NCBI GenBank assembly: GCA_965204535.1
Contig: CBDBEV010000001.1
Span: forward strand, 544,001-608,000
Reading direction: 5' to 3'
Source of the DNA: a bacterium
GTDB lineage: Bacteria; UBA8248
Length of the DNA: 64,000 nt
Shown here in pieces: positions 3,692 to 61,532 of this stretch. The number at the start of each line of letters is the position of its first letter. The stretch's first letter is position 1. The translations under genes and the position numbers were made by a program. The notes under the pieces are model-generated. The model was given only the letters and a program-made list of their open reading frames with translations, was not told the origin of the DNA and did no database searches.

Positions 3692-3695
3692 GGCG

Positions 3696-26992: not shown

Positions 26993-27008
26993 GGAGGCTC
27001 CAGGGGAG

Positions 27009-32521: not shown

Positions 32522-32574
32522 CGTTTCATCGTCCCTGACACCTGAATACGAACGACAACGCGAAAGGAAACCAC

Positions 32575-36138: not shown

Positions 36139-36153
36139 TCCGGGGAAAGCGAA

Positions 36154-37925: not shown

Positions 37926-37934
37926 GGAACGAGC

Positions 37935-40131: not shown

Positions 40132-40152
40132 CGACGGCGAGAGAGACAAACC

Positions 40153-43409: not shown

Positions 43410-43558
43410 GGGTGGCTCCTTATGAGTTGTCATTCAATCGTTGACGGGCGCTACGGCCTCTCCCGGGGTCCTGCTCTTTCACCTCCCGGCCGCCCTCCTC
43501 GACCTCCGCGCAGTGCATCGCGAGGCCAGGACGCCCGCGGCGCCACCATGCAGACAGT

Positions 43559-45505
43559 ATGAAAAAGGAGAATCGGATGACCATCGGAAACGCCACCCTG
43601 CGCGGCGGCCAGACGCTGCTCCACGACGCCAGGATGTGGGGCCAGCTCGCGCGCTGGGGGATTTTTGGACTCGTCCTGACTGTCGTCCTGACGCCCGCGG
43701 TCAGCGTCTTCACGGCGACGAGCGCGCACGAGTGGCGCGTCGTGGGCCTGGGCACGCTGGCCGAGGCCAAGCTCGCCATCGGGTATTCCCCCGATTCGGG
43801 CCAGGTGTACGAGTGGGGCGCGGGTGAGCGGACGATCGAGCGGATCGAGCTCATCGCAAGCGATCCCAGGATAGAGCGGATCAGGAGGCGCATGCTCGAT
43901 ACCATCCATGCCAGGGCGTGGATGGGCCTCTGGATCGGCTTGGGCGGCGTGGCCCTGTTCGCGTTCTTCTTCTGGCTCCTGGGCCGGCGCATGGCCCGCG
44001 CGCACCGGGTGCGGGGCGCGGAGATGACCTCGGACCAGGCGCTCGGGAGGCGCGTGCAGCCCGTTTTTTCCCGCCTGGGGGAAAAATTCTTTCCGGCCTC
44101 GCGCAAGTCCAGACCCCGCATCGCGGGCGTCCCCTGGCCCGAGCGCGCCGAGACCCAGCACACCATCGTCTCGGGCACCACGGGCTCGGGCAAGACCGTC
44201 CTGATCTCGGACCTGGTCGCGCAGATCAGGGAACGCGGCGAGCGCTGCATCCTCTACGACAAGATGGGGAGCTACACGCGGGCCTTCTTCGACCCCGCCC
44301 GCGACGTCCTGATGAATCCCCTCGACGCCCGGGCGCCGCGCTGGTCCCCCTTCCTGGAAGCCAGGACGCCCAGGGACTTCGACACGATGGCCGCCGCCCT
44401 CATCCCGCAGCAGAAGGACACGGTGGACCCCTTCTGGGTCACGGCCGCGCGGCAGCTGTTCGCGAACGGCGCGGGCGTACTCTGGAAGCGCGGCGTGACG
44501 GAGAACCGGATACTCGTCGAGCACCTGCTCAAGACAGAGCTGACCTCCCTGGCCGAGGCCATGGAGGGCACGGTGGCGCAGTCCATCGTGGACCCCGAGA
44601 ACCCCAAGACGGCGCTCTCGGTGCGCGCCATGTTGACCGCGCACCTGGGCGCGCTCGAATGCCTGCCCGACTCAGGAAAGCCCTTCTCGATAAGGGAGTG
44701 GGTGGAGCGCGAGGACGAGACCGGCTTCCTGTTCCTGACCTCGCGCGGCGACCAGCACGCGAGCCTCCGGGGTCTCATCTCGACCTGGCTCGAAATCGCC
44801 GTGAACGCGCTCCTCTCCCTCGGCCGGGACGACGCGCGCAGGATATGGATTGTGCTCGACGAGCTTCCCACCCTGCACCAGGTGCCGAGCCTGCAGCCCG
44901 GACTCGCGGAATCGCGCCAATTCGGGGGGTGCTTCGTGCTCGGGATACAGGTGATCTCCGCCCTGCGCGATCTCTATGGGCGAAACGGCGCCGAGACCGT
45001 ATCGGGTCTCTGCGGCACCCGGGTGGTGCTGGCCGCGCCCGACCAGGAGACGGCGCGCTGGTCGGCCGAGAGCCTGGGGCGCGGCGAGGTCACCGAGTAC
45101 GCGGAGGGGCTCAGCTACGGCGCGAGCGCCATGCGCGACGGCGTCTCGCTCACGCAGCGCCGCGAGATGCGGCCCCTGGCGCTGCCTTCGGAGATCATGC
45201 GCCTCGAGAATCTGCACGGCTACCTCAAGTTCCCCGGCCCCTGGCCCGTGGCGCGGGTCGAGCTCGACTACGTGAAGAGGCCCGAGGCGGCCGAGAGTTT
45301 CATACCGAGAGAGGGCGCGATGCTTCCCGAGGCGAATGAGAGCGCGGGAACCGAAGAGCCCGGGACCGTGGACGCTCCCGCCGATGAAGAGACTGCTCCG
45401 GCCGCTGATCACGAAAGCGACCCTGCTCCTCCCCTGCCGGAAAAGAGCGGAAACGACACGCCCGGCTCCGGGGAACCGCAGCCGGAAAACCTGAGGAATT
45501 TCTGA
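43559..45505 (+). CDS. traD: Type IV coupling protein TraD
   Basis: Two N-terminal TMs, GTTGSGKT, YDK.G, DPFW..AA, LDELP.L, R.FGG. Confidence 0.95.
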   Translation: MKKENRMTIGNATLRGGQTLLHDARMWGQLARWGIFGLVLTVVLTPAVSVFTATSAHEWRVVGLGTLAEAKLAIGYSPDSGQVYEWGAGERTIERIELIASDPRIERIRRRMLDTIHARAWMGLWIGLGGVALFAFFFWLLGRRMARAHRVRGAEMTSDQALGRRVQPVFSRLGEKFFPASRKSRPRIAGVPWPERAETQHTIVSGTTGSGKTVLISDLVAQIRERGERCILYDKMGSYTRAFFDPARDVLMNPLDARAPRWSPFLEARTPRDFDTMAAALIPQQKDTVDPFWVTAARQLFANGAGVLWKRGVTENRILVEHLLKTELTSLAEAMEGTVAQSIVDPENPKTALSVRAMLTAHLGALECLPDSGKPFSIREWVEREDETGFLFLTSRGDQHASLRGLISTWLEIAVNALLSLGRDDARRIWIVLDELPTLHQVPSLQPGLAESRQFGGCFVLGIQVISALRDLYGRNGAETVSGLCGTRVVLAAPDQETARWSAESLGRGEVTEYAEGLSYGASAMRDGVSLTQRREMRPLALPSEIMRLENLHGYLKFPGPWPVARVELDYVKRPEAAESFIPREGAMLPEANESAGTEEPGTVDAPADEETAPAADHESDPAPPLPEKSGNDTPGSGEPQPENLRNF

Positions 45506-45506
45506 A

Positions 45507-48314
45507 ATGGTGGCATCCATCGGCGCCGTCGCCGCCTCCGCGCAGGGGGCGTCCTACTACGAGCGCGACGGCTACTACGCGAAGGACGACCCGGCGCACC
45601 GCGAAGCGAGCGCCTGGCAAGGCAGGGGCGCGGAGGATTTGGGACTCTCGGGTCCGGTCGACCCCGATACCTTCCGCGCGGTGCTCGAAGGCATGGTGCC
45701 CGACGGTTCGGGGCGCAGGCTCGGACGCTTGGGCAAGGACGGGTCGTTCCACCACCGTCCCGGCCGCGACCTCACCCTCTCGGCGCCCAAGTCCGTCTCC
45801 CTCCTGGCTCTCGTCGGCGGCGACGCGCGCGCGATTAGGGCCCACGATGCGGCCGTCGCGCGCACCCTGGACTGGGTCGAGCGAAACGTCGCAGAGACCA
45901 GGATGAGCGACCCCAAGACCGGGCGCATGGTCCGGGCGGGGGAACAGAAGAGCGTCGTCGCGACCTTCCGGCACGACACGTCGCGCAACCTCGACCCCCT
46001 GCTCCACACGCACTCAGTTCTAGCCAACATGGTCCGGGGGACAGACGGCAAATGGCGCACGATGTCGAACGAGAAGCTCTATGCGAATAAGATGCTGATA
46101 GGTGCCATGTACCGCACGGAACTCGCAAGTGAACTTGAAAGAATCGGCTACCGTATCGAGAAGACCCACGCCGACGGGCGCTTCGAGGTCGCGGGCGTGC
46201 CCAGGGACGTGATCGAGGCGTTCTCGACCCGGCGGGCGGAGATAGAGGCCGCGATGGCCGAGCGCGGTCTGGGCGCTACGGCGGAGAACCAGCGCGCAGC
46301 CCAGCGGGCCGCGCTCATGACCCGCGCGCGCAAGCGCGACGTCGACAAGACCGTCCTCGCGGCCGTATGGGAGAAACAGGCGAAGGAGCTGGGCTTCGAC
46401 GCCGGTACCCTCGCGGCGGAAGCGATGGCGAGGAGCGTGGCGACCAGGGAACCGGAACCCGCACGCGAGGCCGTGGAATGGGCCGTGGCGCACCTCTCGG
46501 AGCGGGAAGCGGTTTTCGACCGCGCCGCTCTGCTCGCGGGCGCGCTCGCCTGGCGGCCGGGCGCGGTGTCGATGACGGGCGCCGAACGCGAGGTGGCGAG
46601 GCTGGAGGAGACCGGCGTCCTGCACGCGGCGGACCTGCCGGGAACCAGGGACATGATCACTACGGAGAAGGCAGCGGCGGCTGAGCGTGAGACCATCGCC
46701 CTCCTGAATTCCGGACGCGGGCGGGGGGCGCCCGCCATGCGCGCCCGCGCCGTGGACAAGGCCTTGAGAAACGGCCCGCTGACACATGGCCAGCGCGAGG
46801 CCGTGAAACTCATCCTCACCGACTCCGACCGCGTCGTCGGCGTACAGGGCTACGCGGGCACGGGCAAGACCGCGATGCTCAAGCGCGCCCGCGCTCTATT
46901 CGAGAAGCGCGGCTACGAGGTCATGGGCCTGGCGCCCTCGGCTTCGGCAGCGCGGACCCTCGAAACCGAGGCCGGGATCGCGAGCGAGACGCTCCAGCGC
47001 TTCCTCGCGCGAAACGCCGGGGTCGCCGATGGCCGCCTCACGAGAACGACCGAGAAAAAGATGCGCGCGGGCTACGCGAAGACCGCCCTCGTCGTGGACG
47101 AGGGCTCCCTGGCTTCCACGCGCGAGGTGCGTGAACTCCTGCGGATCGCGGGGACCTTGCGCCTGCCCCGGGTCGTTCTGGTGGGCGACGCGAAACAGCT
47201 CGACGCCGTGGACGCCGGCAAACCCTTCGCGCAGCTGCAGGCCGCGGGCATGAAGACGGCGGTGATGCAGGAGATCATGCGCCAGCGCGACCAGGACCTG
47301 AAAGCCGCCGTCGAGTCCACGCTCACAGGCGACGTGAAGCGCGCCTTCGAGAAGCTGGGTTCCAACGTAGCCGAAGTGAAACCTGACAACCTCGCGGGCG
47401 CCGCCGCCGCGCGCTGGCTTGCGCTCCCGCCCGAGGCGCGTGCAAACGCCGGGCTCATGGCGCCGAGCCATGCGATCCGCGAGAAGATCAACGCCATCGT
47501 GCGCGAGCGCCTGATCCGGGACGGCGTCGTCCACGGTCCGGCTTTCCTCACGGAACGCCTTGTCTCGCGCGGCTACACGAACCCCGAGAAATCGCTCGCC
47601 GCGAACTATTCTCCCGGCGACGTGGTGGCCTTCCACCGGCCCTACAAGCGAATCGGCGTCGAGAAGGGGGATGAGTTGCGCGTGGCGGGTGTCGATCACG
47701 CGAACAGCGCCGTCATCCTCGAAGGTGGGCACGGGCGGGAAATCCGCTGGGAGCCCCGCCGTCTCGCGGCGCGCACCGGCGGTGTCGAGGTATACCGCGT
47801 CGAGCATATGGAACTGCGCCAGGGCGACAAGGTCCGCTGGACCCGGAACGACAAGGACCTCGGTCTCATGAACAGCCAGGCCGCCGAGGTGACGGGCGTC
47901 AGGGGCGGGTGCGTCACCTTCCGGGTCGAGGACGGGCGCGTCCTCGACATGACGAGCGCCGATCCCCAGCTTCGACACGTCGACCGCGCATGGGCCTCGA
48001 CCGTCCACGCCTTCCAGGGCCGGACGGTCGATACCGTCATCGCGGCGATGGAGGCGAACCACCCCGAGCTCACCAACCAGAAGACGCTCTACGTCGAGAT
48101 CAGCCGCGCCCGGGACCGGGCGGAACTCGTGACGGACGACGCGAAGGCCCTGTGCGAACGGCTCGAAACCGCCACCGGGGAGCGCATCGCGGCTCTGGAA
48201 GCGCTCGGTGACAGGATCAGGGATACAGGGAGAACGAAGGAAGCGGCGCAATCGATGGAGCAACGGACGCCGGGGAGGGAGAAGGTTCGCTCAGCGCATG
48301 AGTTGGGAATGTAG
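45507..48314 (+). CDS. traI: MobF (TrwC/TraI) relaxase-helicase
   Basis: YY...GYY, DLTLSAPKSVS, H..SR..DP.LHTH, FSTRR, QGYAGTGKT, VDE, H..QG.T. Confidence 0.95.
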   Translation: MVASIGAVAASAQGASYYERDGYYAKDDPAHREASAWQGRGAEDLGLSGPVDPDTFRAVLEGMVPDGSGRRLGRLGKDGSFHHRPGRDLTLSAPKSVSLLALVGGDARAIRAHDAAVARTLDWVERNVAETRMSDPKTGRMVRAGEQKSVVATFRHDTSRNLDPLLHTHSVLANMVRGTDGKWRTMSNEKLYANKMLIGAMYRTELASELERIGYRIEKTHADGRFEVAGVPRDVIEAFSTRRAEIEAAMAERGLGATAENQRAAQRAALMTRARKRDVDKTVLAAVWEKQAKELGFDAGTLAAEAMARSVATREPEPAREAVEWAVAHLSEREAVFDRAALLAGALAWRPGAVSMTGAEREVARLEETGVLHAADLPGTRDMITTEKAAAAERETIALLNSGRGRGAPAMRARAVDKALRNGPLTHGQREAVKLILTDSDRVVGVQGYAGTGKTAMLKRARALFEKRGYEVMGLAPSASAARTLETEAGIASETLQRFLARNAGVADGRLTRTTEKKMRAGYAKTALVVDEGSLASTREVRELLRIAGTLRLPRVVLVGDAKQLDAVDAGKPFAQLQAAGMKTAVMQEIMRQRDQDLKAAVESTLTGDVKRAFEKLGSNVAEVKPDNLAGAAAARWLALPPEARANAGLMAPSHAIREKINAIVRERLIRDGVVHGPAFLTERLVSRGYTNPEKSLAANYSPGDVVAFHRPYKRIGVEKGDELRVAGVDHANSAVILEGGHGREIRWEPRRLAARTGGVEVYRVEHMELRQGDKVRWTRNDKDLGLMNSQAAEVTGVRGGCVTFRVEDGRVLDMTSADPQLRHVDRAWASTVHAFQGRTVDTVIAAMEANHPELTNQKTLYVEISRARDRAELVTDDAKALCERLETATGERIAALEALGDRIRDTGRTKEAAQSMEQRTPGREKVRSAHELGM

Positions 48315-48623
48315 GATATACGCTATCGAATTTTATCGTATAAAATCGCTAAATGGTATTTTGCCCGTTTAGAGACAGTGGGGGATTTTCAGCGGTGATG
48401 ATATCCTGTATTCTATGTTATAAAAGCTGTGTCGAACATGTTGCGTAAAGGAGGTGGACATGCTTGAAATATTTTCCGTCCAGCCCTCTCCCACATGATT
48501 CCCCAAGCTCATTTGGGGCGCCGGGAGAGGGTTACCTCCCCCTCCCCTTAACTACCTAGCCATGTAAGCAGTTCCCAAAAATTCGATAAATTCACGACGT
48601 CTTTCGCGTGGTTTCAGACAGCG

Positions 48624-48779
48624 GGGGATTGCCGACGGTCGTGAATTCCTTTTAGTTTGTTGAAAGTATTGTGGGTATTGGTTTTTTCGAACTTCGTTCA
48701 GTATTTGCCTTCTGGAAGAAGTAATCAAATCGGAAGCGGATGGATTACAACTCCTGCGCATATCAGCGAGTTCGTGTCG
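48624..48779 (+). repeat. Conserved non-coding element, copy 2 (IS66 target)
   Basis: Core 48721-48760; 48624-48683 is 46/60 identical, ungapped, to 61071-61130. Confidence 0.85.
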
Positions 48780-48848
48780 GTAAGCGTTCGGGCGGGCCGT
48801 GATGGTAGTGCCTTGAAGCAGTAGTTCGGGCCGGAATGGGGGATGATT

Positions 48849-49721
48849 TTACCGGTTGAGGACTTGCTTCCAGTTTCTGCGCAACGGTCGTAGCCAGATG
48901 TCCTTTTTCGGTTGGTCTCGTTTCGTGTATCTGTCGTAGCGTCCACGCCCCTGGGTCATACCGACGTGAATCCACCCCGATGCCCTGTAGACGGCGCCGG
49001 TGTAGCGCGGCGTCTCGACGAAGGTCTCGACGAGGACGGGTGTCGTGCCATAGCGCTCGGTCCAGTCCTCGGGCAGGCGCCTGCGGATGATGGCGAGGAG
49101 GTGTGAGCCGAGGTTGAGGATCCTGATCCATGGCAGGATGAGGAACCTCGGGTTGTCGACCACGAGGGGGAGGTTCTTCTCGCGCAGCTGCGGCGTCCAG
49201 CCGATGAAGCTGTCGCGCGGGGCGAGCTTCCACGCGGCGGTGGAGAAGCCGAGCATGGCGAGGGGCCTGCCGCCCCGGTCGTGGACGGCGTAGCGCATCT
49301 GCGCGCCGACGAGGGTCTTGTAGCCGAGGTAGTGGTAGCGGGCGACGAACTCGTTCCAGAGCCTGCCCTCGCGGGTTCCGCGCACGGCGACGCGCATATC
49401 GAGGGGGCGGACTTCGTCGAGGGTCTCAGGCGCCGGGATGAGGGGAGGTTCGGTGTCGGGTCCGAAGACGATCGGCCCGGGCCGGTTCTGGCGCCACTTC
49501 GGTGGGGGCAGCGTGATCAGGCCGTCCTTGTGCATGGCCAGCATAGTCACCCGGGCCATCATGTCCTTGAGTCCGCCGTCGGGCTTGTACCAGCCGATTC
49601 GGCGGCAGAACTCCTTCGATAGCGCATGGCGGTTGAGCGCAGGTGGACCTGCGATCAGTTCGCGCAGCAGCGCCATCTCTTCCGTCGTGAAGTCGCGTCC
49701 GTGGTAGCGGCACTCGGTCAC
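48849..49721 (-). CDS. DUF4338 domain protein (IS copy 2)
   Basis: Close paralog of 2819-3691. Confidence 0.85.
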   Translation of the reverse strand: MTECRYHGRDFTTEEMALLRELIAGPPALNRHALSKEFCRRIGWYKPDGGLKDMMARVTMLAMHKDGLITLPPPKWRQNRPGPIVFGPDTEPPLIPAPETLDEVRPLDMRVAVRGTREGRLWNEFVARYHYLGYKTLVGAQMRYAVHDRGGRPLAMLGFSTAAWKLAPRDSFIGWTPQLREKNLPLVVDNPRFLILPWIRILNLGSHLLAIIRRRLPEDWTERYGTTPVLVETFVETPRYTGAVYRASGWIHVGMTQGRGRYDRYTKRDQPKKDIWLRPLRRNWKQVLNR

Positions 49722-49725
49722 GGCG

Positions 49726-52080
49726 TCATCCCGGCGCCGTGAGGGCGCGCCTGCGCTCCGTGCTCATCGACCAGGGCAGCCACGCGGAGAGGTCCCCGGG
49801 CGCCCGGCCGCCGTTCTCCGCGCAGGCCGTGAGCCATGCCTCCAGCCAGCGGAGCGGGTCGACCCCGTTCGACGCGAGGGTTCCGAGGACCGAGTACATC
49901 ATCGCCGTAAACCTGGCGCCGGCCTCGCTGTCGGAGCCGAACGAGAGCCGCCTGCCGATCACAGGGCCCCGAAGCGCACGTTCGCTGGCGTTGTTATCCA
50001 TCGGCACCGAGGGGCGTTCGATGAAGACGCTCAGCCCCTCGCGGTGGTTCAGCAGCGAGCGAAGCGCCTTGCCCTCGCGCGCCTGCGCGGGCAGAGCGGC
50101 CATCTCCCGTCGGGCCTGCGCGAACAGGTCCTTGAGCGCCTTCTTCAATTCGTCGTGCGCCGCGTCGAACGCCGCATCCTGGCGTTCGACGCCCGGGTCG
50201 TAACTGGCCAGGCGCGCCTCGTTCAGGCGGTAAAGCAAGGCAATCCGCTCGATCCATCTCTCGCACCACGGCGTCAGCCGCTCATCGCCGGCGGCGCAGT
50301 GGATATAATCGCGCCGGACGTGACTCCAGCACCATGCGAGAGTCACCAGACCCCCGGGAATGCGCGCCAGCTTCTTGTAGGCGCTGTAGCGGTCGCAGAC
50401 GATGACCGTATGGGAGCCGGCCGCGCCGAACAGCTTCATCGCGACCTCAGCACTCCGCGAGGGGTCGACGTGGAAGTAGACGGAGTCTGCGCTGACCGAG
50501 GTCCACAGCCAGGCGCGGCTCGAGCGTCCTTGTTCGCGAAGCGACTGAACGCGCCACGTCGTCTCGTCCCCGTGACGCACCGCCGCTTCGTTCTGGCGGT
50601 CGAGGATCGCCGCAGCCAGCGGCTCGAAGAGCGGCGTGAAGCGGTGCGTGCTGTCGCCCAGTGTGCCTGCAGAGACCGGAAGCCCCTGGTCGGAGAGCCA
50701 CGCGGCGACCCGGCGCAGCGGGCGGAAGCAGGCGTAGCGCTCGAACAGGAAGCGCGCCCACACGCTCGTCCCGTAAGGCGTGCCCGCGAACAGGCGCGGC
50801 GCGGCGGGCGCCGACACTTCCACCGGAGACGACGCGCACGCGCATCTCCTGCGCCATCTCGGACGGCGGATGACGCGCTTGTGGGCCGAGACTTCGATCT
50901 CGAAGATGGAGGAGACCTCGGCGCCATTGGCCACGTAGGGCTTCCCGCAACCGGCGCAGACGCGCGCACCGGCCGGCGGGTTGCGAACTTCGGTCCTCTC
51001 ATCGAGCGCGGGCCGCGGGGTGCGGCCATGACCGGCGGCGCCGGGTTGCCGGCCGCGCCTGCGCTCCGAGCGCGGCCTCTCCTGCCGTTCGCTCTTGCGC
51101 CCGAACAGTCTTCTCGCCAGCACCGCTCCGGTGGCGCGAAGCTTCGCGAGATCGGCCTCCAGCCGCGCCCGGATGGTCTCTGACTTGCGGAGCGCCCTGC
51201 GAAGACGCCCGTTCTCCCTCGACAGCGACCTGAGCGCCGTCTTCTGGCGCCGCGACCTCCCCAGGGCCTTGCGCAGTTCCTCATCTGCACGAGACGGCGA
51301 CTTCGAGCGCGCCGCCTCGAGAGCGCGCAGCAACCGCGCCTTCAGCCGTTCGGTCGCAATGCCTACGGCCCCCAGGGAGACTTCAAGACGGTAGACCTCC
51401 GCAGACAGCGACTCGACCACCTCCGCCTGGTCGCGCAATCGCCTCAACTTCCTGTAGAGCCCGATGGCCTCCTCGTCCAGGCTCCGAATGGTCTCCTTGT
51501 CGGTCGCCGACTTCTGCTTCTCCAGGGCCAGACGATCTTCGAGCCGGGCAACTTCCTTCTCCCGCCGGCCGACCTCCTTGCGCAGGGCATGAATCGTCTC
51601 CTTGCGCTCCTCCAGGGCCTTGCGCAGCCGCCCCGCCTCCCCCGGCGACGGCACGCCCGAGAGCTCCTTGCGAAGCCGGACGACCTCCATGCGCAGCGAC
51701 ATGAGCGGGCTGCGCTTGCGCGGATCGACCCCCGCCTCCGCAAGCAGCTTCTCCAGCCGCGCCACTTCCGCCTTGAGCGACAGCGCGTCCTTCGCCGCGC
51801 GGCGGGCTTCCTTCGCCTCCCCGGCGGCCGCCTCGAGCTTCTTCCGGCTGGCGTCGAGATGCCGCTTCAGCTTGCCCGCACGGGAGCGGGAATCCACTTC
51901 CGCCCAACGCAACTCCTCGCAGCGCGCCTCCGCCGCCTCCGCGCGCGCACGCTCGCGCTCGTACAGCGAACGCCAGTACGCCTCTGCGGTTGTGGACAAC
52001 CCGGGGGAATGAGGCCATGGCTCATCCGGCCTCTCGGCCAACGCCAACTCCGTCTCGACAGCTTCTGCGCGAATCTTCAT
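49726..52080 (-). CDS. tnpC: IS66 transposase (copy 2)
   Basis: Close paralog of 3696-6050. Confidence 0.92.
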   Translation of the reverse strand: MKIRAEAVETELALAERPDEPWPHSPGLSTTAEAYWRSLYERERARAEAAEARCEELRWAEVDSRSRAGKLKRHLDASRKKLEAAAGEAKEARRAAKDALSLKAEVARLEKLLAEAGVDPRKRSPLMSLRMEVVRLRKELSGVPSPGEAGRLRKALEERKETIHALRKEVGRREKEVARLEDRLALEKQKSATDKETIRSLDEEAIGLYRKLRRLRDQAEVVESLSAEVYRLEVSLGAVGIATERLKARLLRALEAARSKSPSRADEELRKALGRSRRQKTALRSLSRENGRLRRALRKSETIRARLEADLAKLRATGAVLARRLFGRKSERQERPRSERRRGRQPGAAGHGRTPRPALDERTEVRNPPAGARVCAGCGKPYVANGAEVSSIFEIEVSAHKRVIRRPRWRRRCACASSPVEVSAPAAPRLFAGTPYGTSVWARFLFERYACFRPLRRVAAWLSDQGLPVSAGTLGDSTHRFTPLFEPLAAAILDRQNEAAVRHGDETTWRVQSLREQGRSSRAWLWTSVSADSVYFHVDPSRSAEVAMKLFGAAGSHTVIVCDRYSAYKKLARIPGGLVTLAWCWSHVRRDYIHCAAGDERLTPWCERWIERIALLYRLNEARLASYDPGVERQDAAFDAAHDELKKALKDLFAQARREMAALPAQAREGKALRSLLNHREGLSVFIERPSVPMDNNASERALRGPVIGRRLSFGSDSEAGARFTAMMYSVLGTLASNGVDPLRWLEAWLTACAENGGRAPGDLSAWLPWSMSTERRRALTAPG

Positions 52081-52270
52081 GCCGACATCATTAGCACATG
52101 TCGAATCGCGTTACCAGTCGCCCGGGAAAATTCTATCCGATGGAGGCGATGCGCCCGGCGCCGGGTCCATCACGGCCCGCCCGAACGCTTACTCGTGTCG
52201 AGTAAGCGTTCGGGCGGGCCGTGATGGTAGTGCCTTGAAGCAGTAGTTCGGGCCGGAATGGGGGATGATT

Positions 52271-53143
52271 TTACCGGTTGAGGACTTGCTTCCAGTTTCT
52301 GCGCAACGGTCGTAGCCAGATGTCCTTTTTCGGTTGGTCTCGTTTCGTGTATCTGTCGTAGCGTCCACGCCCCTGGGTCATACCGACGTGAATCCACCCC
52401 GATGCCCTGTAGACGGCGCCGGTGTAGCGCGGCGTCTCGACGAAGGTCTCGACGAGGACGGGTGTCGTGCCATAGCGCTCGGTCCAGTCCTCGGGCAGGC
52501 GCCTGCGGATGATGGCGAGGAGGTGTGAGCCGAGGTTGAGGATCCTGATCCATGGCAGGATGAGGAACCTCGGGTTGTCGACCACGAGGGGGAGGTTCTT
52601 CTCGCGCAGCTGCGGCGTCCAGCCGATGAAGCTGTCGCGCGGGGCGAGCTTCCACGCGGCGGTGGAGAAGCCGAGCATGGCGAGGGGCCTGCCGCCCCGG
52701 TCGTGGACGGCGTAGCGCATCTGCGCGCCGACGAGGGTCTTGTAGCCGAGGTAGTGGTAGCGGGCGACGAACTCGTTCCAGAGCCTGCCCTCGCGGGTTC
52801 CGCGCACGGCGACGCGCATATCGAGGGGGCGGACTTCGTCGAGGGTCTCAGGCGCCGGGATGAGGGGAGGTTCGGTGTCGGGTCCGAAGACGATCGGCCC
52901 GGGCCGGTTCTGGCGCCACTTCGGTGGGGGCAGCGTGATCAGGCCGTCCTTGTGCATGGCCAGCATAGTCACCCGGGCCATCATGTCCTTGAGTCCGCCG
53001 TCGGGCTTGTACCAGCCGATTCGGCGGCAGAACTCCTTCGATAGCGCATGGCGGTTGAGCGCAGGTGGACCTGCGATCAGTTCGCGCAGCAGCGCCATCT
53101 CTTCCGTCGTGAAGTCGCGTCCGTGGTAGCGGCACTCGGTCAC
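52271..53143 (-). CDS. DUF4338 domain protein (IS copy 3)
   Basis: Identical to the copy 2 protein. Confidence 0.85.
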   Translation of the reverse strand: MTECRYHGRDFTTEEMALLRELIAGPPALNRHALSKEFCRRIGWYKPDGGLKDMMARVTMLAMHKDGLITLPPPKWRQNRPGPIVFGPDTEPPLIPAPETLDEVRPLDMRVAVRGTREGRLWNEFVARYHYLGYKTLVGAQMRYAVHDRGGRPLAMLGFSTAAWKLAPRDSFIGWTPQLREKNLPLVVDNPRFLILPWIRILNLGSHLLAIIRRRLPEDWTERYGTTPVLVETFVETPRYTGAVYRASGWIHVGMTQGRGRYDRYTKRDQPKKDIWLRPLRRNWKQVLNR

Positions 53144-53147
53144 GGCG

Positions 53148-55502
53148 TCATCCCGGCGCCGTGAGGGCGCGCCTGCGCTCCGTGCTCATCGACCAGGGCA
53201 GCCACGCGGAGAGGTCCCCGGGCGCCCGGCCGCCGTTCTCCGCGCAGGCCGTGAGCCATGCCTCCAGCCAGCGGAGCGGGTCGACCCCGTTCGACGCGAG
53301 GGTTCCGAGGACCGAGTACATCATCGCCGTAAACCTGGCGCCGGCCTCGCTGTCGGAGCCGAACGAGAGCCGCCTGCCGATCACAGGGCCCCGAAGCGCA
53401 CGTTCGCTGGCGTTGTTATCCATCGGCACCGAGGGGCGTTCGATGAAGACGCTCAGCCCCTCGCGGTGGTTCAGCAGCGAGCGAAGCGCCTTGCCCTCGC
53501 GCGCCTGCGCGGGCAGAGCGGCCATCTCCCGTCGGGCCTGCGCGAACAGGTCCTTGAGCGCCTTCTTCAATTCGTCGTGCGCCGCGTCGAACGCCGCATC
53601 CTGGCGTTCGACGCCCGGGTCGTAACTGGCCAGGCGCGCCTCGTTCAGGCGGTAAAGCAAGGCAATCCGCTCGATCCATCTCTCGCACCACGGCGTCAGC
53701 CGCTCATCGCCGGCGGCGCAGTGGATATAATCGCGCCGGACGTGACTCCAGCACCATGCGAGAGTCACCAGACCCCCGGGAATGCGCGCCAGCTTCTTGT
53801 AGGCGCTGTAGCGGTCGCAGACGATGACCGTATGGGAGCCGGCCGCGCCGAACAGCTTCATCGCGACCTCAGCACTCCGCGAGGGGTCGACGTGGAAGTA
53901 GACGGAGTCTGCGCTGACCGAGGTCCACAGCCAGGCGCGGCTCGAGCGTCCTTGTTCGCGAAGCGACTGAACGCGCCACGTCGTCTCGTCCCCGTGACGC
54001 ACCGCCGCTTCGTTCTGGCGGTCGAGGATCGCCGCAGCCAGCGGCTCGAAGAGCGGCGTGAAGCGGTGCGTGCTGTCGCCCAGTGTGCCTGCAGAGACCG
54101 GAAGCCCCTGGTCGGAGAGCCACGCGGCGACCCGGCGCAGCGGGCGGAAGCAGGCGTAGCGCTCGAACAGGAAGCGCGCCCACACGCTCGTCCCGTAAGG
54201 CGTGCCCGCGAACAGGCGCGGCGCGGCGGGCGCCGACACTTCCACCGGAGACGACGCGCACGCGCATCTCCTGCGCCATCTCGGACGGCGGATGACGCGC
54301 TTGTGGGCCGAGACTTCGATCTCGAAGATGGAGGAGACCTCGGCGCCATTGGCCACGTAGGGCTTCCCGCAACCGGCGCAGACGCGCGCACCGGCCGGCG
54401 GGTTGCGAACTTCGGTCCTCTCATCGAGCGCGGGCCGCGGGGTGCGGCCATGACCGGCGGCGCCGGGTTGCCGGCCGCGCCTGCGCTCCGAGCGCGGCCT
54501 CTCCTGCCGTTCGCTCTTGCGCCCGAACAGTCTTCTCGCCAGCACCGCTCCGGTGGCGCGAAGCTTCGCGAGATCGGCCTCCAGCCGCGCCCGGATGGTC
54601 TCTGACTTGCGGAGCGCCCTGCGAAGACGCCCGTTCTCCCTCGACAGCGACCTGAGCGCCGTCTTCTGGCGCCGCGACCTCCCCAGGGCCTTGCGCAGTT
54701 CCTCATCTGCACGAGACGGCGACTTCGAGCGCGCCGCCTCGAGAGCGCGCAGCAACCGCGCCTTCAGCCGTTCGGTCGCAATGCCTACGGCCCCCAGGGA
54801 GACTTCAAGACGGTAGACCTCCGCAGACAGCGACTCGACCACCTCCGCCTGGTCGCGCAATCGCCTCAACTTCCTGTAGAGCCCGATGGCCTCCTCGTCC
54901 AGGCTCCGAATGGTCTCCTTGTCGGTCGCCGACTTCTGCTTCTCCAGGGCCAGACGATCTTCGAGCCGGGCAACTTCCTTCTCCCGCCGGCCGACCTCCT
55001 TGCGCAGGGCATGAATCGTCTCCTTGCGCTCCTCCAGGGCCTTGCGCAGCCGCCCCGCCTCCCCCGGCGACGGCACGCCCGAGAGCTCCTTGCGAAGCCG
55101 GACGACCTCCATGCGCAGCGACATGAGCGGGCTGCGCTTGCGCGGATCGACCCCCGCCTCCGCAAGCAGCTTCTCCAGCCGCGCCACTTCCGCCTTGAGC
55201 GACAGCGCGTCCTTCGCCGCGCGGCGGGCTTCCTTCGCCTCCCCGGCGGCCGCCTCGAGCTTCTTCCGGCTGGCGTCGAGATGCCGCTTCAGCTTGCCCG
55301 CACGGGAGCGGGAATCCACTTCCGCCCAACGCAACTCCTCGCAGCGCGCCTCCGCCGCCTCCGCGCGCGCACGCTCGCGCTCGTACAGCGAACGCCAGTA
55401 CGCCTCTGCGGTTGTGGACAACCCGGGGGAATGAGGCCATGGCTCATCCGGCCTCTCGGCCAACGCCAACTCCGTCTCGACAGCTTCTGCGCGAATCTTC
55501 AT
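53148..55502 (-). CDS. tnpC: IS66 transposase (copy 3)
   Basis: Identical to the copy 2 protein. Confidence 0.92.
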   Translation of the reverse strand: MKIRAEAVETELALAERPDEPWPHSPGLSTTAEAYWRSLYERERARAEAAEARCEELRWAEVDSRSRAGKLKRHLDASRKKLEAAAGEAKEARRAAKDALSLKAEVARLEKLLAEAGVDPRKRSPLMSLRMEVVRLRKELSGVPSPGEAGRLRKALEERKETIHALRKEVGRREKEVARLEDRLALEKQKSATDKETIRSLDEEAIGLYRKLRRLRDQAEVVESLSAEVYRLEVSLGAVGIATERLKARLLRALEAARSKSPSRADEELRKALGRSRRQKTALRSLSRENGRLRRALRKSETIRARLEADLAKLRATGAVLARRLFGRKSERQERPRSERRRGRQPGAAGHGRTPRPALDERTEVRNPPAGARVCAGCGKPYVANGAEVSSIFEIEVSAHKRVIRRPRWRRRCACASSPVEVSAPAAPRLFAGTPYGTSVWARFLFERYACFRPLRRVAAWLSDQGLPVSAGTLGDSTHRFTPLFEPLAAAILDRQNEAAVRHGDETTWRVQSLREQGRSSRAWLWTSVSADSVYFHVDPSRSAEVAMKLFGAAGSHTVIVCDRYSAYKKLARIPGGLVTLAWCWSHVRRDYIHCAAGDERLTPWCERWIERIALLYRLNEARLASYDPGVERQDAAFDAAHDELKKALKDLFAQARREMAALPAQAREGKALRSLLNHREGLSVFIERPSVPMDNNASERALRGPVIGRRLSFGSDSEAGARFTAMMYSVLGTLASNGVDPLRWLEAWLTACAENGGRAPGDLSAWLPWSMSTERRRALTAPG

Positions 55503-56305
55503 GCCGACATCATTAGCACATGTCGAATCGCGTTACCAGTCGCCCGGGAAAATTCTATCCGATGGAGGCGATGCGCCCGGCGCCGGGTCCATCACGGCCC
55601 GCCCGAACGCTTACCGTGTCGATCGTTGCGTAGTCCTCCTCCAAAATACGACCTCGCAATGTTCATTCAGAAACCACTAGTCCGCGCCCCATGCAGATGC
55701 ATGATTCGCGTTGTGGAGTAGTCAATCACAACGATGATGATCTTTTGAAGGGAGCGCTCCGCCCGCGGCGTAATCGAACAACTTCCGGCTTTTTTGTTCA
55801 TGCGCGTCTCTTCTTTCGTCCCGTTCGCTCATCCTGCATGCAGATGGGAGTCTGCACCGCTTGCACCCAGGACGGAATAAATCAATAACCGCCCGTTTGC
55901 AAGGGTTTTCGATATTCAGTTTCCAACGCTTTTTGCGTATTCGCGCCCGACCCTGCGAGCGGCTGCTCGGAAGTGCGGCGAAAAAGTTCTTTTGTCGCGC
56001 GCCTCACTTGGCCCGAACGTCGCAGGGCCCGGGCGGGCGTTCATCGCGCACGGCCCCCGAGCCCCGCCTTGCACGACGGGTTCCGGGAGCCTCGGTTGCT
56101 CGATCTTACCGAAACGCAGGGCAAGCTCAGGAGCCAAAGGCTCCGGCTTTCGCTGCGCTACGCATTCTAAGCTTGAGGCCGGGGATTTGGGAGCTTTCGA
56201 TCTAAGGATGTTCATGTGAGCCTTCGGCCGTGAAGCCGACTTCCATGACGTGTATCCTCAATCGACTTATCTAGAACTCCAAAAGCCGCTGTTCGCTATT
56301 CGCGC

Positions 56306-56368: not shown

Positions 56369-57211
56369 ATGTATAACTTGCTTGTTCAGTATATGCCTTG
56401 GGAAGGTGGGAGGGGCACTATATTAACAAGTCGTCTATTTGAACACACCGACGATATACTTCAAGAACAATTCAAAGATGGCGATTTGGTTCTATTGGAC
56501 AAGCTGATTCAATTCCCGTGTTTGTTTATGCAGGAAGGCACGGAAGATGAGCTTGCGCATGTAGGAACAATCACACGTGCACGACGTTCTGGCACCGATA
56601 TTTTGATCGATTATCTCTTCGATCCAGATGTCGACCCAGTTCCTAACAAGGTCATTTTCGCGAATAAAGACGAGTTTGATATGCGAGAACGGTTTGAGTT
56701 CAGCAGAACACATTGGGCACTCAAGGATGTCGACTTGTTCCGCGTGCTCCTCCGACTTTCCCAACCTCTTCGCCAAAGCCCAAAGGTATTCTCGATATCC
56801 GAGAGTGAGATAATTGAGCGCACACTAGTATCCGTAATGATGCCGTTTGATTCGGGGTTTTCCGACGTCTACGAGGCGTTACAAGAAGCGGCGACAGCAG
56901 TTGGACTTCGGTGTCGTAGGGCAGATGAAATCTGGGAAAATCCTGCAATCATTCAAGATATAGTGACGCTAATAGACAAATCTTTTCTGGTGGTATGTGA
57001 CTGTACAAAGAGAAACCCAAACGTATTCTACGAAATCGGTATTGCCCACACTCTTGGGCGTGAGGTGGTTTTGATTACTCAAGCTCATGAAGACATCCCC
57101 TTTGATCTCCGCCATCTGCGCTATATCCATTATCTTAATAATGGTGAGGGGCGTCAGGCGCTCAAAGCGGCGCTCTGTGAACGTTTTAGCTTCCTTCAAG
57201 AAAACCTGTAA
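56369..57211 (+). CDS. Protein with C-terminal nucleoside 2-deoxyribosyltransferase/TIR-like domain; defence candidate
   Basis: VMMPF, RRADE, I..DI...I, D.T..NPNVFYE.GIAH, PFDLRH motifs; N-terminal domain not identified. Confidence 0.7.
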   Translation: MYNLLVQYMPWEGGRGTILTSRLFEHTDDILQEQFKDGDLVLLDKLIQFPCLFMQEGTEDELAHVGTITRARRSGTDILIDYLFDPDVDPVPNKVIFANKDEFDMRERFEFSRTHWALKDVDLFRVLLRLSQPLRQSPKVFSISESEIIERTLVSVMMPFDSGFSDVYEALQEAATAVGLRCRRADEIWENPAIIQDIVTLIDKSFLVVCDCTKRNPNVFYEIGIAHTLGREVVLITQAHEDIPFDLRHLRYIHYLNNGEGRQALKAALCERFSFLQENL

Positions 57212-57633
57212 TCGTAGTCATTGCCCATAGTTGAGAAAATCGTTCGTCAGCGGGGTGATACTGCCAGATTTGGTGTATGTGCTGAATTGAAGAAGGCGGC
57301 GCATTCCTGCTGAAATGTAGTTTTGAAGAATTTTATTTCAGCGAGAGAGGAGACGCGCCATCATGGGCAAAGATACGATGGTTTGTTTTTCGAATTCAGT
57401 CTTTCGGGACAAACTCAGCGGACTGGTGCGCAACGGCACTCGGCGGGTCCAGATCGCCTCACAAGCGGTCATAGCGCGTCAACACCTAGGGGTAACACCG
57501 TCTTCGTATCGATCCAGATCGAGAATCTGAACCGTGGTATCGTCCAGCAAAAAGGACCTCCTTATCCTCTGACGCGTGCCGATTGGATCACACACATGAA
57601 TATTCAAGCAGATCAGTTGGTTGGCGACAAAAC

Positions 57634-58545
57634 TCAATCGCATAACCCCATCTGGATATTGAACCATTCCTGGTTTGTCATTCGACCAGCGCGGTAGAGG
57701 TAAGTTGCCTCCATCTTCTTTTTAACCTCCTCTTCTGATTTGCCGTGCACCGCTTCCAGCCTGACTTTTCGGGCCATCTCTGTCTTTGGGCGTGCATGGC
57801 AGTGCCAATCCTTCCCAGATATTTCCTCAGTATGGTCAATCATGAGCTCGTAGTCATCAAACTTGGGAAAGTTCTGGTCCGACGGACAGGGGTGCTTGAT
57901 CATTCCGGCAAAGGTCTGGAACCCACATTCGTAAGTCTCGACGCGGTCCCAATCCTTATCCGCGTCATCGACCGGGGCATCTATCTGCGTCGAAAGCATC
58001 GCTCCACAGTACGTACACTGATATTCTGCCACCTGCTCCCGAAGTTCTTCGATCTCGGCCTGGAGATCTTGTATCGCCTCACCACTCGTGATCCGTTCCA
58101 GTTCAGCACGTGGGTGTGCACGATAGATATCTGGTCGGACTGTCCTCAGGAGCATGATAGCGGCCTCTTGGGCACTGACCCGGCGGGTGTCAATCGCGAA
58201 TTTGTCCGAGAGTGAAGAGCTCAGCTGGACTACCTCGTGCTTGGTGACGCCATGCCAGATTGGCAAGATTTTGAGATCCTCCTCGACGTCACGATTAACC
58301 AGACCTCGGAGTTCATAATCGGGCCAAGCCTTGCCGATGAAAGCTCTGCTTATCACGACAATGCCGAATCTAGCGCCAGTTATTCCTTTGTCGATCTCGC
58401 GGGTGATGCTGTCGCCAACGTCCAAGGAGAATTCGTCATACCAGACCGACATCCCAAAATTTCGCAGCGCAGTCGCCAGTGAGCGGACAAACCCGTCCTT
58501 ATCTTCTGATGCGTGGCAAACGAATACATCGTAGTCTTGTGGCAT
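57634..58545 (-). CDS. TIR-domain protein with C-terminal coiled coil and Cys-rich region
   Basis: YDVFVCHASEDK..FV, VWYDEF.L..GDS, W..YEL catalytic Glu, ILPIWH; CTYC...C...C. Confidence 0.88.
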   Translation of the reverse strand: MPQDYDVFVCHASEDKDGFVRSLATALRNFGMSVWYDEFSLDVGDSITREIDKGITGARFGIVVISRAFIGKAWPDYELRGLVNRDVEEDLKILPIWHGVTKHEVVQLSSSLSDKFAIDTRRVSAQEAAIMLLRTVRPDIYRAHPRAELERITSGEAIQDLQAEIEELREQVAEYQCTYCGAMLSTQIDAPVDDADKDWDRVETYECGFQTFAGMIKHPCPSDQNFPKFDDYELMIDHTEEISGKDWHCHARPKTEMARKVRLEAVHGKSEEEVKKKMEATYLYRAGRMTNQEWFNIQMGLCD

Positions 58546-58742
58546 CAGGTCGCTCCCTTCGACGTACCTATAGGCTTCCGAGGATGGTTTTAGCAGGTTT
58601 AGTACTTTGGGTCATTTCCGTTTCGGCGATGACCGGCTTGCAATGTGCTCTTACATGGCCGCGGATTTCGGGAGGGTATTCGATTCAATAGTTATGGGGA
58701 TGTCATACCGACAGGCCAGCCGAAAACCTACGAATCAAAGCA

Positions 58743-58954
58743 TCAACGGAATTTCACCTCGGTGCCATTCACCGCTTCCTTGGATTGTTTTCCTGCCTTG
58801 AAGCTTACGACCTTGCGAGCGCTGATGAGCGCTTCCTGACCCGTCTTCGGGTTGCGCCCCACGCGAGCGTTCTTCTTCCTCATCTGGAAGGAGCCGAAGC
58901 GCCTCAAGATGACGGACTCGCCACCCTTAAGTGATTCCTTGATGGTGTCGATGA
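58743..58954 (-). pseudogene. 5'-truncated HU/IHF-family gene
   Basis: IDTIKESLKGGESVILRRFGSFQMRKKNARVGRNPKTGQEALISARKVVSFKAGK; in-frame stop just upstream, no start codon. Confidence 0.85.
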
Positions 58955-59074
58955 TACAGGGGGTTCAGGCGACCCCGCCGCGTGCAGTTCAGACGCAATC
59001 AGGCATCCTGTCCTACATTCGGCGGTAACTCCCAAACATTTGGAACACCTGAAATTCGTTTTGAATTTATTCAA

Positions 59075-59099
59075 TTTACATGGTTTTCGACCATGCAAA
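59075..59099. promoter_or_regulatory. Inverted repeat upstream of abiEi; likely autoregulatory operator
   Basis: TTTaCATGGT-tttcg-ACCATGcAAA in an AT-rich promoter region; AbiEi antitoxins are known to autorepress through inverted repeats. Confidence 0.45.
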
Positions 59100-59150
59100 T
59101 CATATATTGATGAAAACACCTTGAAAATATTTTGAAAATATGAAATTTTA

Positions 59151-59999
59151 ATGGTTATGAGCCATCAAAGAACTCACAGACTGAAACCACTCCTGGACAA
59201 GGTCCCACCGGGCTTTATGGTCGATACGCCGTGGCTCAGGGCGCAGGGCATCGATCCCAAGTCCATCCACAACTACGTGGCTCGTGGATGGCTGGAGCGG
59301 ATCATCCGAGGGGTTTATCGCCGTCCTCTGCCCCAGGGCGTGCAGAGCTCTGCAGGGACATCCTGGGAGATATTCCTGCTCTCGCTGCAATGGGTCATGA
59401 AGCATGACGTTCATCTCGGAGGCGAGAGCGCGCTCGACCTCGCGGGCCATGCCCATTACGTCGGCCTCGGCGGTTTGCCGCGCGTTCATTTCTACGGCCA
59501 TGCGCCGCCATGGCTGAAACGATTGCCGACGCAGGCGAAGATCGTCATGCATCGCTCCGCGCTCTTCGGCGATGACCTAACCGGTGTCATCGACGCCGCT
59601 CATGATACCGAAGAGCCCGCCCGGGCAGTGAATGTCTGGCGGTGGCCCATAAAGGCCTCCTCGCCGGAGCGCGCCGTCCTCGAGGCGCTCGACGAACTGC
59701 CGAACCACGCGAGCTTCGACAACCTGGACAAAATCTTCGAAGGACTGACGACATTGCGGCCGCGGCAATTGATGACACTGCTCACGCTCTGCCGAAGCGT
59801 TAAAGTCCGGCGGCTGTTTTTCGTCTTCGCGGACAGGCACCGACATCCATGGCGCAAGCACCTGAACACCTCGAGGGTTGGCTTCGGTTCGGGGCCGCGA
59901 GCCTTGGTCAAGGGCGGCCGACTTCATCCGACCCATCGGATCTATGTACCCGAGGACTTTGCTTCTGTGAACAGGGACGAGGCAGGCACCGATGCATGA
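59151..59999 (+). CDS. abiEi: Type IV toxin-antitoxin antitoxin AbiEi
   Basis: Y...GWL.R..RGVY.RP, HLGG..AL...G..HY, SSPERA.LE, C.SVKV.RLF. Confidence 0.88.
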   Translation: MVMSHQRTHRLKPLLDKVPPGFMVDTPWLRAQGIDPKSIHNYVARGWLERIIRGVYRRPLPQGVQSSAGTSWEIFLLSLQWVMKHDVHLGGESALDLAGHAHYVGLGGLPRVHFYGHAPPWLKRLPTQAKIVMHRSALFGDDLTGVIDAAHDTEEPARAVNVWRWPIKASSPERAVLEALDELPNHASFDNLDKIFEGLTTLRPRQLMTLLTLCRSVKVRRLFFVFADRHRHPWRKHLNTSRVGFGSGPRALVKGGRLHPTHRIYVPEDFASVNRDEAGTDA

Positions 60000-60906
60000 G
60001 CGCTATGTACATCGGGTTCGGCTGCTGCTGAGCGTCCTGCCGCATATCGCGCGGGAGAACGTGTTCGCGCTCAAGGGCGGTACTGCCATCAACCTGTTCT
60101 ACCGGGACATGCCGCGGCTCTCCGTCGATATTGACCTCACCTACTTGCCGGTGGATAACCGCGAGAAATCGCTCAAGGATATCGACGAGACGCTTGAGCG
60201 GATTATGGCGTCGGTCACTGCTCGCAACCCAAGCCTGGAGGTGAGGCGCATCCCAGGCGGTGGCAACATCGATACACGGATCATGGTCGGTGACGGCCAG
60301 GCGCAGACAAAAATCGAAACCTCACCTGTAACGCGCGGGTCGGTGCATCCGCCATTGCTGATGACGGCATCGGACACCGTGACGGAGCGATTCGGCTTCG
60401 TCGAGGTGAATGTCCTCGCATTTGAGGACCTCTACGGCGGCAAGCTGCATGCGGCGCTCGACCGCCAGCACCCGCGCGACCTCTTCGATGTCAAACTTCT
60501 TTACGAGAACGAAGGCCTCACCGACGAATTGTTCCGCGCGTTCATGGTCTATGTGGCGAGTTCAAGTCGACCGGTGCATGAACTGCTGGCGCCGGGCGCT
60601 CCCTTCCAGGACGAGTTGTACGACGAAGAGTTCGTGGGAATGACGCGAGAAGCCGTGACCAAAGAGGCGCTCATCGAAACGCGCGCGCGCCTGCACACCG
60701 ACATCAGAGAACGGTTGACGGGAGACATTGCGGCCTTCCTGCTTTCGCTCCAGGATGCAGAACCCGACTTCGACCTGATAAACCTTTCCACAGCGGTGGA
60801 CCTTCCTGCGGTTCGCTGGAAGTTGCTCAACCTCGAGAAGCTCAAAGATGAGAACCCTGAAAAGCATGCGGCGCAAAGGGGCATGCTCGAAGACCTGTTT
60901 CACTAA
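59992..60906 (+). CDS. abiEii: AbiEii/AbiGii nucleotidyltransferase toxin
   Basis: FALKGGTAINLF...PRLSVDIDL, GKL.AAL.RQHPRDLFD; overlaps abiEi. Confidence 0.92.
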   Translation: MHERYVHRVRLLLSVLPHIARENVFALKGGTAINLFYRDMPRLSVDIDLTYLPVDNREKSLKDIDETLERIMASVTARNPSLEVRRIPGGGNIDTRIMVGDGQAQTKIETSPVTRGSVHPPLLMTASDTVTERFGFVEVNVLAFEDLYGGKLHAALDRQHPRDLFDVKLLYENEGLTDELFRAFMVYVASSSRPVHELLAPGAPFQDELYDEEFVGMTREAVTKEALIETRARLHTDIRERLTGDIAAFLLSLQDAEPDFDLINLSTAVDLPAVRWKLLNLEKLKDENPEKHAAQRGMLEDLFH

Positions 60907-61070
60907 TGACGAGGCGTTCAAGCCGGGGTTTCTTGCAGAATGTTCAGTTCCCGGGATTTGGATGACCGATTGTCGTTTTCAGGCAATGGGCAGCGGATAA
61001 TGTATCAAGGGAGGTTTAGCAAACTCGTTGAGGATGGTTTGCTCAGTCTTACACTCGTTTATGGGCGCTA

Positions 61071-61225
61071 GGGGATTTCCAACGGCTGTGAAGTCTTTGT
61101 TGTTTGTTGGAACTATTGCAGATATTTGTTTTTTGAATTTCGAACCAGGTTCACTATTTGAAATTTGTTATCAAAACGCAAGCGGATGAATTGCAATTTT
61201 TGCGCACTCCTACGAATGTTTGTCG
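61071..61225 (+). repeat. Conserved non-coding element, copy 3 (unoccupied)
   Basis: Core 61167-61206 GTTATCAAAACGCAAGCGGATGAATTGCAATTTTTGCGCA is 32/40 identical to 48721-48760; upstream block 46/60. Confidence 0.82.
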
Positions 61226-61532
61226 CACCGTCTTCAAAATCCAGTTCAAGGTAGTTTGCTTGTAGTCTTACTCCGGCGTTTCACAAGAAGTCTGAGTCGA
61301 TGATGCGTTGCGACTATATTAGGAACACACCGCTAAAATAGGTTTCTTAGTTGGCCGAAAATATCTGAGTCGCAAGTCTAGTCGCGATTATCTTTCTTCC
61401 ATTCTGAAAAACCGTAGGCAGTTTCGTGTCGTAGTCATGATGCCCATTAGGCTGAAGTGGACAAGCGAGGCGGACTTCTGATAGCGCACCGCGACTTGCT
61501 CAGCAACTCTCAATCGTCTCTGGTCAAAGTCT

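Follow-up and report, generated by a model that had tools for sequence, protein, structure and literature searches.

Tn7, through TnsD, inserts at a fixed distance downstream of the recognised site attTn7, and the site survives the insertion. Several other elements are directed to recombination sites. The ISAba32 subgroup of the IS1202 family targets XerCD sites at a fixed distance (bioRxiv 10.1101/2022.12.17.520857), Tn5053/Tn402 are res-site hunters with resolvase-directed transposition and rare off-target insertions (PMC7765201), and the IS1111-attC group and IS4321/IS5075 target recombination sites or the ends of mobile elements (PMC11187229). For ISPa75, ten different target duplications are given, and no conserved target is stated in the available portion of the report (PMC12888890). 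ICEs with arm-binding-domain integrases are described as carrying the integrase at one end, short core repeats and conjugation genes (PMC8138268, PMC5812530), and the multi-recombinase SE, GInt and RIT elements as tandem or hybrid structures (PMC10214605).

Here we analyzed a window of 64,000 nucleotides from a bacterium of the lineage UBA8248 (GCA_965204535.1, contig CBDBEV010000001.1, positions 544,001 to 608,000), and window coordinates are used below. IS66 elements with a DruA-like second gene (IS66-DruA) insert at fixed offsets beside the end of another element, which is targeting. The window also holds an unoccupied copy of the target, ending at 61225. Unlike Tn7, the two IS genes include no TnsC/TniQ homologue (Pfam/NCBIfam), the target is mobile and multi-copy, and it is filled repeatedly, in contrast to target immunity. 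Like ISAba32, it is a DDE IS abutting a tyrosine-recombinase site, with different ISs and tandem insertions at one site. Unlike ISAba32, the present element is an IS66 with an 8-bp TSD, a DruA-like partner, both orientations and two offsets, and the target is a subterminal array about 180 bp from the crossover core and not the core itself. It does not belong to IS1202, since the transposase is IS66 and the TSD is 8 bp rather than a 5-6-bp repeat. Transposition aimed at the recombination site of another element is shared with Tn5053/Tn402; those transposons use TniABQ and serine-resolvase res sites, with a preferred orientation and 5-bp repeats, whereas two IS genes, tyrosine-integrase ends and no orientation bias were seen here. 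IS1111-attC and IS4321/IS5075 use DEDD transposases and choose the target sequence itself by means of an RNA guide, whereas the DDE IS66 element inserts beside, not in, conserved boxes. With classic IS66 and passenger-carrying tIS66, as far as described in PMC12888890, it shares the IS66 DDE transposase, GTAA-type terminal repeats and a TSD; unlike them, it has no TnpA/TnpB, a fixed DruA-like second gene and a strong site preference.

The islands concerned have the features listed above in common with the arm-integrase and multi-recombinase elements, and they also differ from them. Two arm-domain integrases are adjacent with no gene between, so the SE gene order intA-CDS2-intB-CDS4 (PMC10214605) does not apply; the cores are variable and lie in dispersed repeats, not tRNA genes, and there are several orphan distal ends per island. 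Islands with paired arm integrases, variable cores, stacked orphan ends and defence cargo are undescribed in the literature searched. Targeting of ICE ends or arm sites by IS66 was not found in the literature searched either, with subscription journals and ISfinder/TnPedia lying mostly outside that search. Recombination-site hunting is already known; within that literature, neither an IS66 case nor an arm-site target came up.

The IS66-DruA element

The copy at 48780..52192 measures 3413 bp, has 26-bp terminal inverted repeats and lies at offset 0 of the preceding array with the TSD TCGTGTCG; its junction is present in run X4. An identical copy (52202..55614) is a separate insertion at offset +1 with the TSD CGTGTCGA. 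A third copy (2750..6162), at offset 0 with the TSD GAACGTCC, shows 151 differences from the others. The transposase (49726..52080, minus strand, 784 aa) belongs to the IS66 family (NF033517, 286 bits against a cut-off of 180; PF03050). Its structure was modelled at a mean pLDDT of 57.5, and the first ~300 residues are predicted, with low confidence, to form a long N-terminal coiled coil. The only other gene (48849..49721, minus strand) encodes a DruA/DUF4338-like partner of 290 aa (PF14236), which is 81-97% conserved across phyla; the tnpA and tnpB genes of the classic three-gene IS66 are missing. The terminal inverted repeats are of the GTAA type, and most copies have an 8-bp TSD, which is absent at C1:554250.

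This genome carries 13 full copies at 10 sites, including three tandem dimers; single copies at arrays without a resident IS end were found at 2750 and C1:733276, showing that the array on its own is sufficient. Among the 13 copies, 12 differ by 0-1 base, while the underlying arrays are 47-80% alike and the TSDs differ, therefore indicating independent insertions. The same data bear on a view in which one ancestral insertion spread together with the island ends, or in which survival at safe sites mimics targeting. Island ends are dispensable DNA, as this view would expect. Identical elements on arrays of 47-80% identity, with distinct TSDs and in both orientations, contradict it, and the base-precise, one-sided peaks described below go beyond what selection alone would leave, so that it is already largely refuted and extremely improbable.

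In an alphaproteobacterium (L216:1280-1760 and 5360-6380), IS66-DruA is flanked by tandem MITEs of ~123 bp with 0-20-bp spacers, about three on one side and 7-8 on the other. These stacks have a CRISPR-like look and are built by repeated insertion at element ends.

Anatomy and distribution of the array

In the 59-bp array, two TCAA-type boxes with a spacing of 21 bp are accompanied by GCG(C/T)A, and the terminal GTC(G/C) reads GTCG in the 61225 copy. A profile search of this genome gave 41 hits and 35 copies at E<0.001 (31 distinct, three partial). The array pattern was identified in 21 of 41 genomes, and a reversed control gave zero hits. An IHF-like site, defined by sequence alone as no more than one mismatch to the IHF consensus, precedes the array by 48-84 bp in 20 of 27 copies, against a background of 3%.

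Three copies lie in the window, all on the forward strand. The outermost (2623..2749) forms the left end of the island, with its array at 2691-2749 and an IHF-like site at 2623-2635 that matches the consensus perfectly. The second (48600..48779) is filled; its IHF-like site is at 48653-48665, its array at 48721-48779, and its core TCTTTCG (48600-48606) is fused to half of a dispersed repeat. The third has an unoccupied array at 61167..61225, which is predicted to hold integrase arm sites, and a degenerate IHF-like site at 61100..61112 with two mismatches to the consensus. For this inner orphan end, the geometry places the counterpart of the att core at 61047..61057, ~120 bp before the arm array; this segment matches no integrase-side core of the island, and no partner array is found within the island. 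On the other side lies a conserved downstream block of empty copies (61226..61278), a predicted landing zone. The 61225 copy scores 55.5 bits, within the range of the filled copies (19-70). The upstream block of the repeat also occurs in truncated, stacked form ahead of the 48779 and 61225 copies (window 48360-48430 and 60960-60995).

The preliminary description had aligned the 61225 copy with that at 48779, and recomputation gave exactly the same figures: 61071-61130 matched 48624-48683 at 46/60 positions and the best core 40-mer at 32/40. The spacing of 96 versus 97 reflects a single 1-bp indel, and the orientation is identical. The local alignment score of 119 was reached by 0 of 1000 dinucleotide shuffles (mean 24, maximum 44), and the copy at 2594-2749 aligned with both others (scores 52 and 70; 0 of 1000 shuffles each). 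No IS66 end follows 61225, in agreement with the reported empty state, and the motif does exist independently of the IS: the majority of copies are empty, and IS66 lands at the motif end.

Two further statements had to be revised. Similarity had been said to stop at about 61225, whereas it continues for ~53 bp, through 61226-61278. In relatives, the block that follows empty copies aligned with this segment; for three of the five copies tested the score was reached by no more than 2 of 2000 shuffles, and for the remaining two by 30-45 of 2000. At several filled sites, this block is also present on the far side of the IS, after the TSD. Similarity seems to end at 61225 because the IS starts there in the 48779 copy. 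The downstream block has two spacings, and insertion offsets are not fixed relative to it. The YGTC shared by the duplications, pointed out in the preliminary description, is a by-product, simply the end of the motif. It is no target consensus because TSDs at the second landing position (+10..+13), such as AAGTGTTC and GACCACCC, and off-target TSDs lack it.

Likeness to dif, attC/attI, oriT or CRISPR leaders, judged on consensus features, was dropped. A Cre-like recombinase with an HTH_17 gene was also rejected as the recombinase of the motif, as this module occurs without the motif and starts 75-90 bp downstream. The 2.5-kb module is present at 23618-25412 and at about ten other loci, often 75-90 bp after an array. 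Another segment of 117 bp (61294-61410) is ~70% like a single locus of this genome (C1:957324), and six congeners each have one such locus as well.

Paired integrases and island ends

A relative of the array sits just upstream of an adjacent pair of tyrosine integrases at 11 loci of this genome, and upstream of a single integrase at one more. Both integrases carry Arm-DNA-bind_3; the adjacent pair is ~52% alike, with no gene between. Close homologues of these integrases bear the name Nitrospinota, at most a hint at the host. Comparison of their profiles showed the distal and integrase-side arrays to be homologous: none of 20000 column permutations did as well, and the result was again 0 when the first 10 columns were left out. 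For this reason the repeat is likely an arm-site region. In ICE-like islands it lies 175-240 bp inward of the integrase-distal end and is likely the arm and IHF region of that end; the array would be bound by the arm domains of the integrases.

The island of the window measures 104 kb, from ~2510-2550 to C2:650.6-650.9 kb. Fifteen genomes have the right-flank gene; 14 of them lack the island, and in the fifteenth the contig ends too early. The 12-bp att core of the island (CTACCCCCCCTT, 2571..2582, forward strand) is repeated at C2:650549-650560 beyond the integrase pair; one copy stands 120 bp ahead of the 2749 array, the other 177 bp past the array on the integrase side. A homologue of the element, located elsewhere in the genome of G002, has an identical core at both ends. 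A second island, of 94 kb, had entered a dispersed repeat; G002 lacks it cleanly, the one informative case among 11 loci. Among 10 end pairs from six relatives, chosen by hand by orientation and distance, six share an 8-15-nt word (a raw count with no null), at +171..+181 on the integrase side and on the distal side at -115..-142 in five and -72 in one; the core repeat is missing at the expected place in the other four.

The island is ICE-like because it carries F-type tra genes, a coupling protein and a TrwC relaxase (26910..48314, forward strand; TrwC, TrwB, TraE/K/B/C/U/N/F/H/G). TIR-domain genes and an AbiE antitoxin-toxin pair lie between the two inner copies (56369..60906); the AbiE genes next to 61225 have a 95-99% copy in a sponge-metagenome run, and in run X1 the sequence of a related strain departs from the window at 61003, directly after AbiE. 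After the empty copy, from 61596 to C2:616 kb (L044), there are unnamed genes of 344 aa and 149 aa, an SNF2 helicase gene and genes for HSP90-like ATPases with weak similarity to defence families, and the part searched occurs in none of 22 congeners. A GmrSD-like gene (9-1706) stands just outside the left end of the island, between two genes that are adjacent in congeners. Two tandem, near-identical alanine-rich ORFs of 901 aa (17574-23093; period 2814 bp) have no Pfam match.

The outermost copies in two islands mark the borders of DNA that relatives lack. The core repeat was found for the 2749 copy and for the G002 homologue, while the 61225 copy, internal and partnerless, has none. The 48779 and 61225 copies are both internal and lack an integrase-side partner in the island; we infer that they are orphan ends left by nested integration and subsequent loss of the partner end. 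Recombination between integrase pairs, following nested integration, would produce such orphan distal ends.

The repeat might instead be another kind of cis element, such as a promoter, a structured RNA, a CRISPR-like leader or an oriT, which the IS favours and which is no recombination end. Several copies per island without a partner end would suit such an element. In eight genomes, 57 of 200 copies also lie beyond 120 kb from a listed integrase, against 143 within that distance, of which 94 are interior and in direct orientation (other classes 27, 15 and 7); the integrase list behind these counts is incomplete, with 54 rows outside it. In this genome, 23 of 31 copies are interior and direct relative to the integrase pair; this prevailing orientation speaks for an island end. 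The fixed distance to island borders and core repeats and the homology to the integrase-side array disagree with a cis element of this kind. Moreover, Rfam and tRNA scans of the window gave no match, and no repeat-spacer array follows the empty copies, unlike a CRISPR leader. We therefore rate it as very unlikely.

An AT-rich dispersed repeat with the CGATAAAT period of ~10 bp has ~50 copies in this genome (G000), for example at 48573-48606 of the window. These islands integrate into it, and a different, REP-like repeat is used by others. Comparison of G000 C1:183-215 kb with the ends of C2 revealed two 14.7-kb segments that are >99.6% identical between contigs, representing either a duplicated ICE or a strain mixture (contamination estimate 5.26%).

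Insertion offsets

Among the 10 IS66-DruA sites of this genome, seven lie directly beside an array, with offsets of 0 or +1 and either orientation of the element, and three are without any trace of the motif. MITEs with IS66-type ends lie at +10/+11. In nine other genomes, 177 listed IS66-type ends were compared with 221 arrays (nine integrase-side rows were dropped and five were unlisted). There were 61 adjacent ends, 36 at -1..+2, 22 at +10..+13 and three elsewhere, so the second landing position is about equally common across relatives. Of the 61, 27 were at exactly 0, and no IS66-type end was detected within 160 bp upstream of the arrays.

Grouped as clusters with paired ends, 37 of 44 in these nine genomes touch an array. 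Six of the remaining seven were rechecked with wider flanks. One (L018) proved to lie at offset 0 of an array on the integrase side, and another (L243) follows, at +1, an array of a third type that adjoins an integrase remnant; two others (L240, L242) had arrays missed by the pattern, with ends at about +11. The third array type beside integrase remnants (L243, L247, L192) has ends at -1/+1. The offset goes with the element subtype: all 16 ends in G030 were at 0, and elements with the TTTATCCAAGCC repeat were at +10..+13 in the loci read. The signal is weaker in Alpha- and Gammaproteobacteria, where, among 35 elements whose ends are defined, four give a clear score at -2..+1; this integrase is in the locus of 10 of the 35, and many elements lie within ordinary genes. 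A pattern scan of JGI metagenomes gave only four matches, at offsets 3, 10, 12 and 12.

Other elements also end near the arrays. Ends of group II intron-like and IS110-like elements were found at 0..+13, the intron-like sequences resembling group II intron 3' ends in shape. Such ends in the same interval suggest a general structural hotspot, in which IHF-bent or transiently opened DNA is open to many elements and IS66 has no dedicated targeting. In the proteobacterial set, an IHF-like site lies within 150 bp of nine of 35 elements (null mean 2.7, maximum 7), which is in agreement with this explanation. However, the peaks are single-base (27/61 at exactly 0, 16/16 in G030) with none upstream, and from one array type to another the ends keep their offset from the boxes but not their distance to the IHF-like site, making a general hotspot unlikely.

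The intron-like sequences are antisense at +2..+12 of many arrays (window 6181-6223, C2:1735544, L005, L078), and a reverse transcriptase fragment adjoins the copy at G000:C2:1735544. Several insertions at +10..+13 lie inside an older IS end at 0..+2, and part of that peak may therefore reflect attraction to resident ends. Elements that we assume to be IS110/IS1111-like, by eye from the ORF start, interrupt IS66 ends ~7 bp in (G000 C1:211429 and C1:755939; L056, L062, L086, L219), and another repeated element abuts IS66 ends with the first base changed to A (L244, L245, L251-L253). Both may hunt IS66 terminal repeats. At L010 (G030:C6:268700-272355), a MITE and an IS with mismatched TSDs separate two arrays that point towards one another, probably as a result of an inversion mediated by the IS.

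Predicted insertion at the empty copy

An insertion at 61225/61226 (±1) had been predicted in related strains or subpopulations. The position is right for the IS66 of this genome, because all seven motif-linked sites are at 0 or +1; the junction itself was not seen. By analogy with the second landing position, related elements would be expected at 61236-61239 (+10..+13), beside 61225/61226-61227 for the element of this genome. Contigs of runs X4, X5 and X6 (at most two samples, possibly the source of the window) cross 61225 uninterrupted, with no junction, and 10 loose ends listed at IS termini in these contigs all match assembled junctions or mixed consensus, none of them 61225. Contigs drop rare variants, and the uninterrupted 61225 therefore says nothing about subpopulations. 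Orthologous cargo downstream of 61225 was present in none of the 22 congeners.

Docking or direct reading

For the locus as a whole, we favour the reading that 61047-61278 is an empty end copy and that IS66-DruA inserts beside such ends by docking on a predicted complex of integrase and IHF on the 59-bp array, and we give it about an even chance of being correct. The integrases would sit on the array through their arm domains, with IHF, and the element would dock on this complex; its insertions lie at two offsets, one helical turn apart and on the cargo side only. The coiled coil of the transposase or the DruA-like protein could serve as the docking part or adaptor. Two one-sided peaks a turn apart, at arrays that share little beyond two boxes, argue for a protein scaffold and not for reading of the cut site. 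As the array survives the insertion, the site is refilled and tandem dimers arise. Landing just inside the end would provide a harmless site that travels with the ICE.

In another explanation, the IS reads the DNA boxes itself, through the transposase or with the DruA-like protein as a TnsD-like reader; the integrase would be unneeded, and the array would still be the island end. It accounts for the filling of orphan copies, and copies far from any listed integrase are filled too, which it fits equally well. The boxes at -59 and -34 are common to all array types that are filled, and at L197 and L208 the second box alone is kept, with IS66-type ends at 0 and -1 from it (by eye). On the other hand, arrays with the same offset are otherwise very divergent, the N-terminus of the transposase models as a coiled coil with no evident DNA-binding fold (low confidence), and no genome was found to have the transposase but lack the integrase. 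Among 41 genomes, the motif occurs in 21, the integrase in 19, all within the 21, and the transposase in 16, all within the 19, in counts that overstate independence because the genomes are kin. Direct reading of the boxes is rated as less likely than docking. Docking on arm-bound integrase is preferred over both direct reading and the structural hotspot, with the odds of its being true about balanced.

More specifically, IS66-DruA elements could be two-gene 'att-arm hunters', in which integrase at the arm sites is contacted either by the 300-residue coiled coil or by the DruA/DUF4338-like protein and insertion is helically phased. We put this forward tentatively, as a proposal more apt to fail than to hold.

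Significance

Target choice and the roles of accessory genes in IS66 are poorly understood, and the present elements offer base-precise, one-sided targeting with many natural replicates, in a clade whose unusual partner gene accompanies targeting of a conjugative-element end. Recombination-site hunting at XerCD sites, res sites and attC is extended to integrase arm regions, and targeting of the array explains the tandem dimers and MITE stacks. If protein-guided, it would give a simple transposon a means of travelling on conjugative elements that has not been described before. If the att-arm hunter proposal is true, it would represent Tn7-like targeting from an insertion sequence and the first role of DUF4338 in target choice, and the arrays would be self-refilling landing pads gathering IS66, MITEs and cargo at ICE ends.
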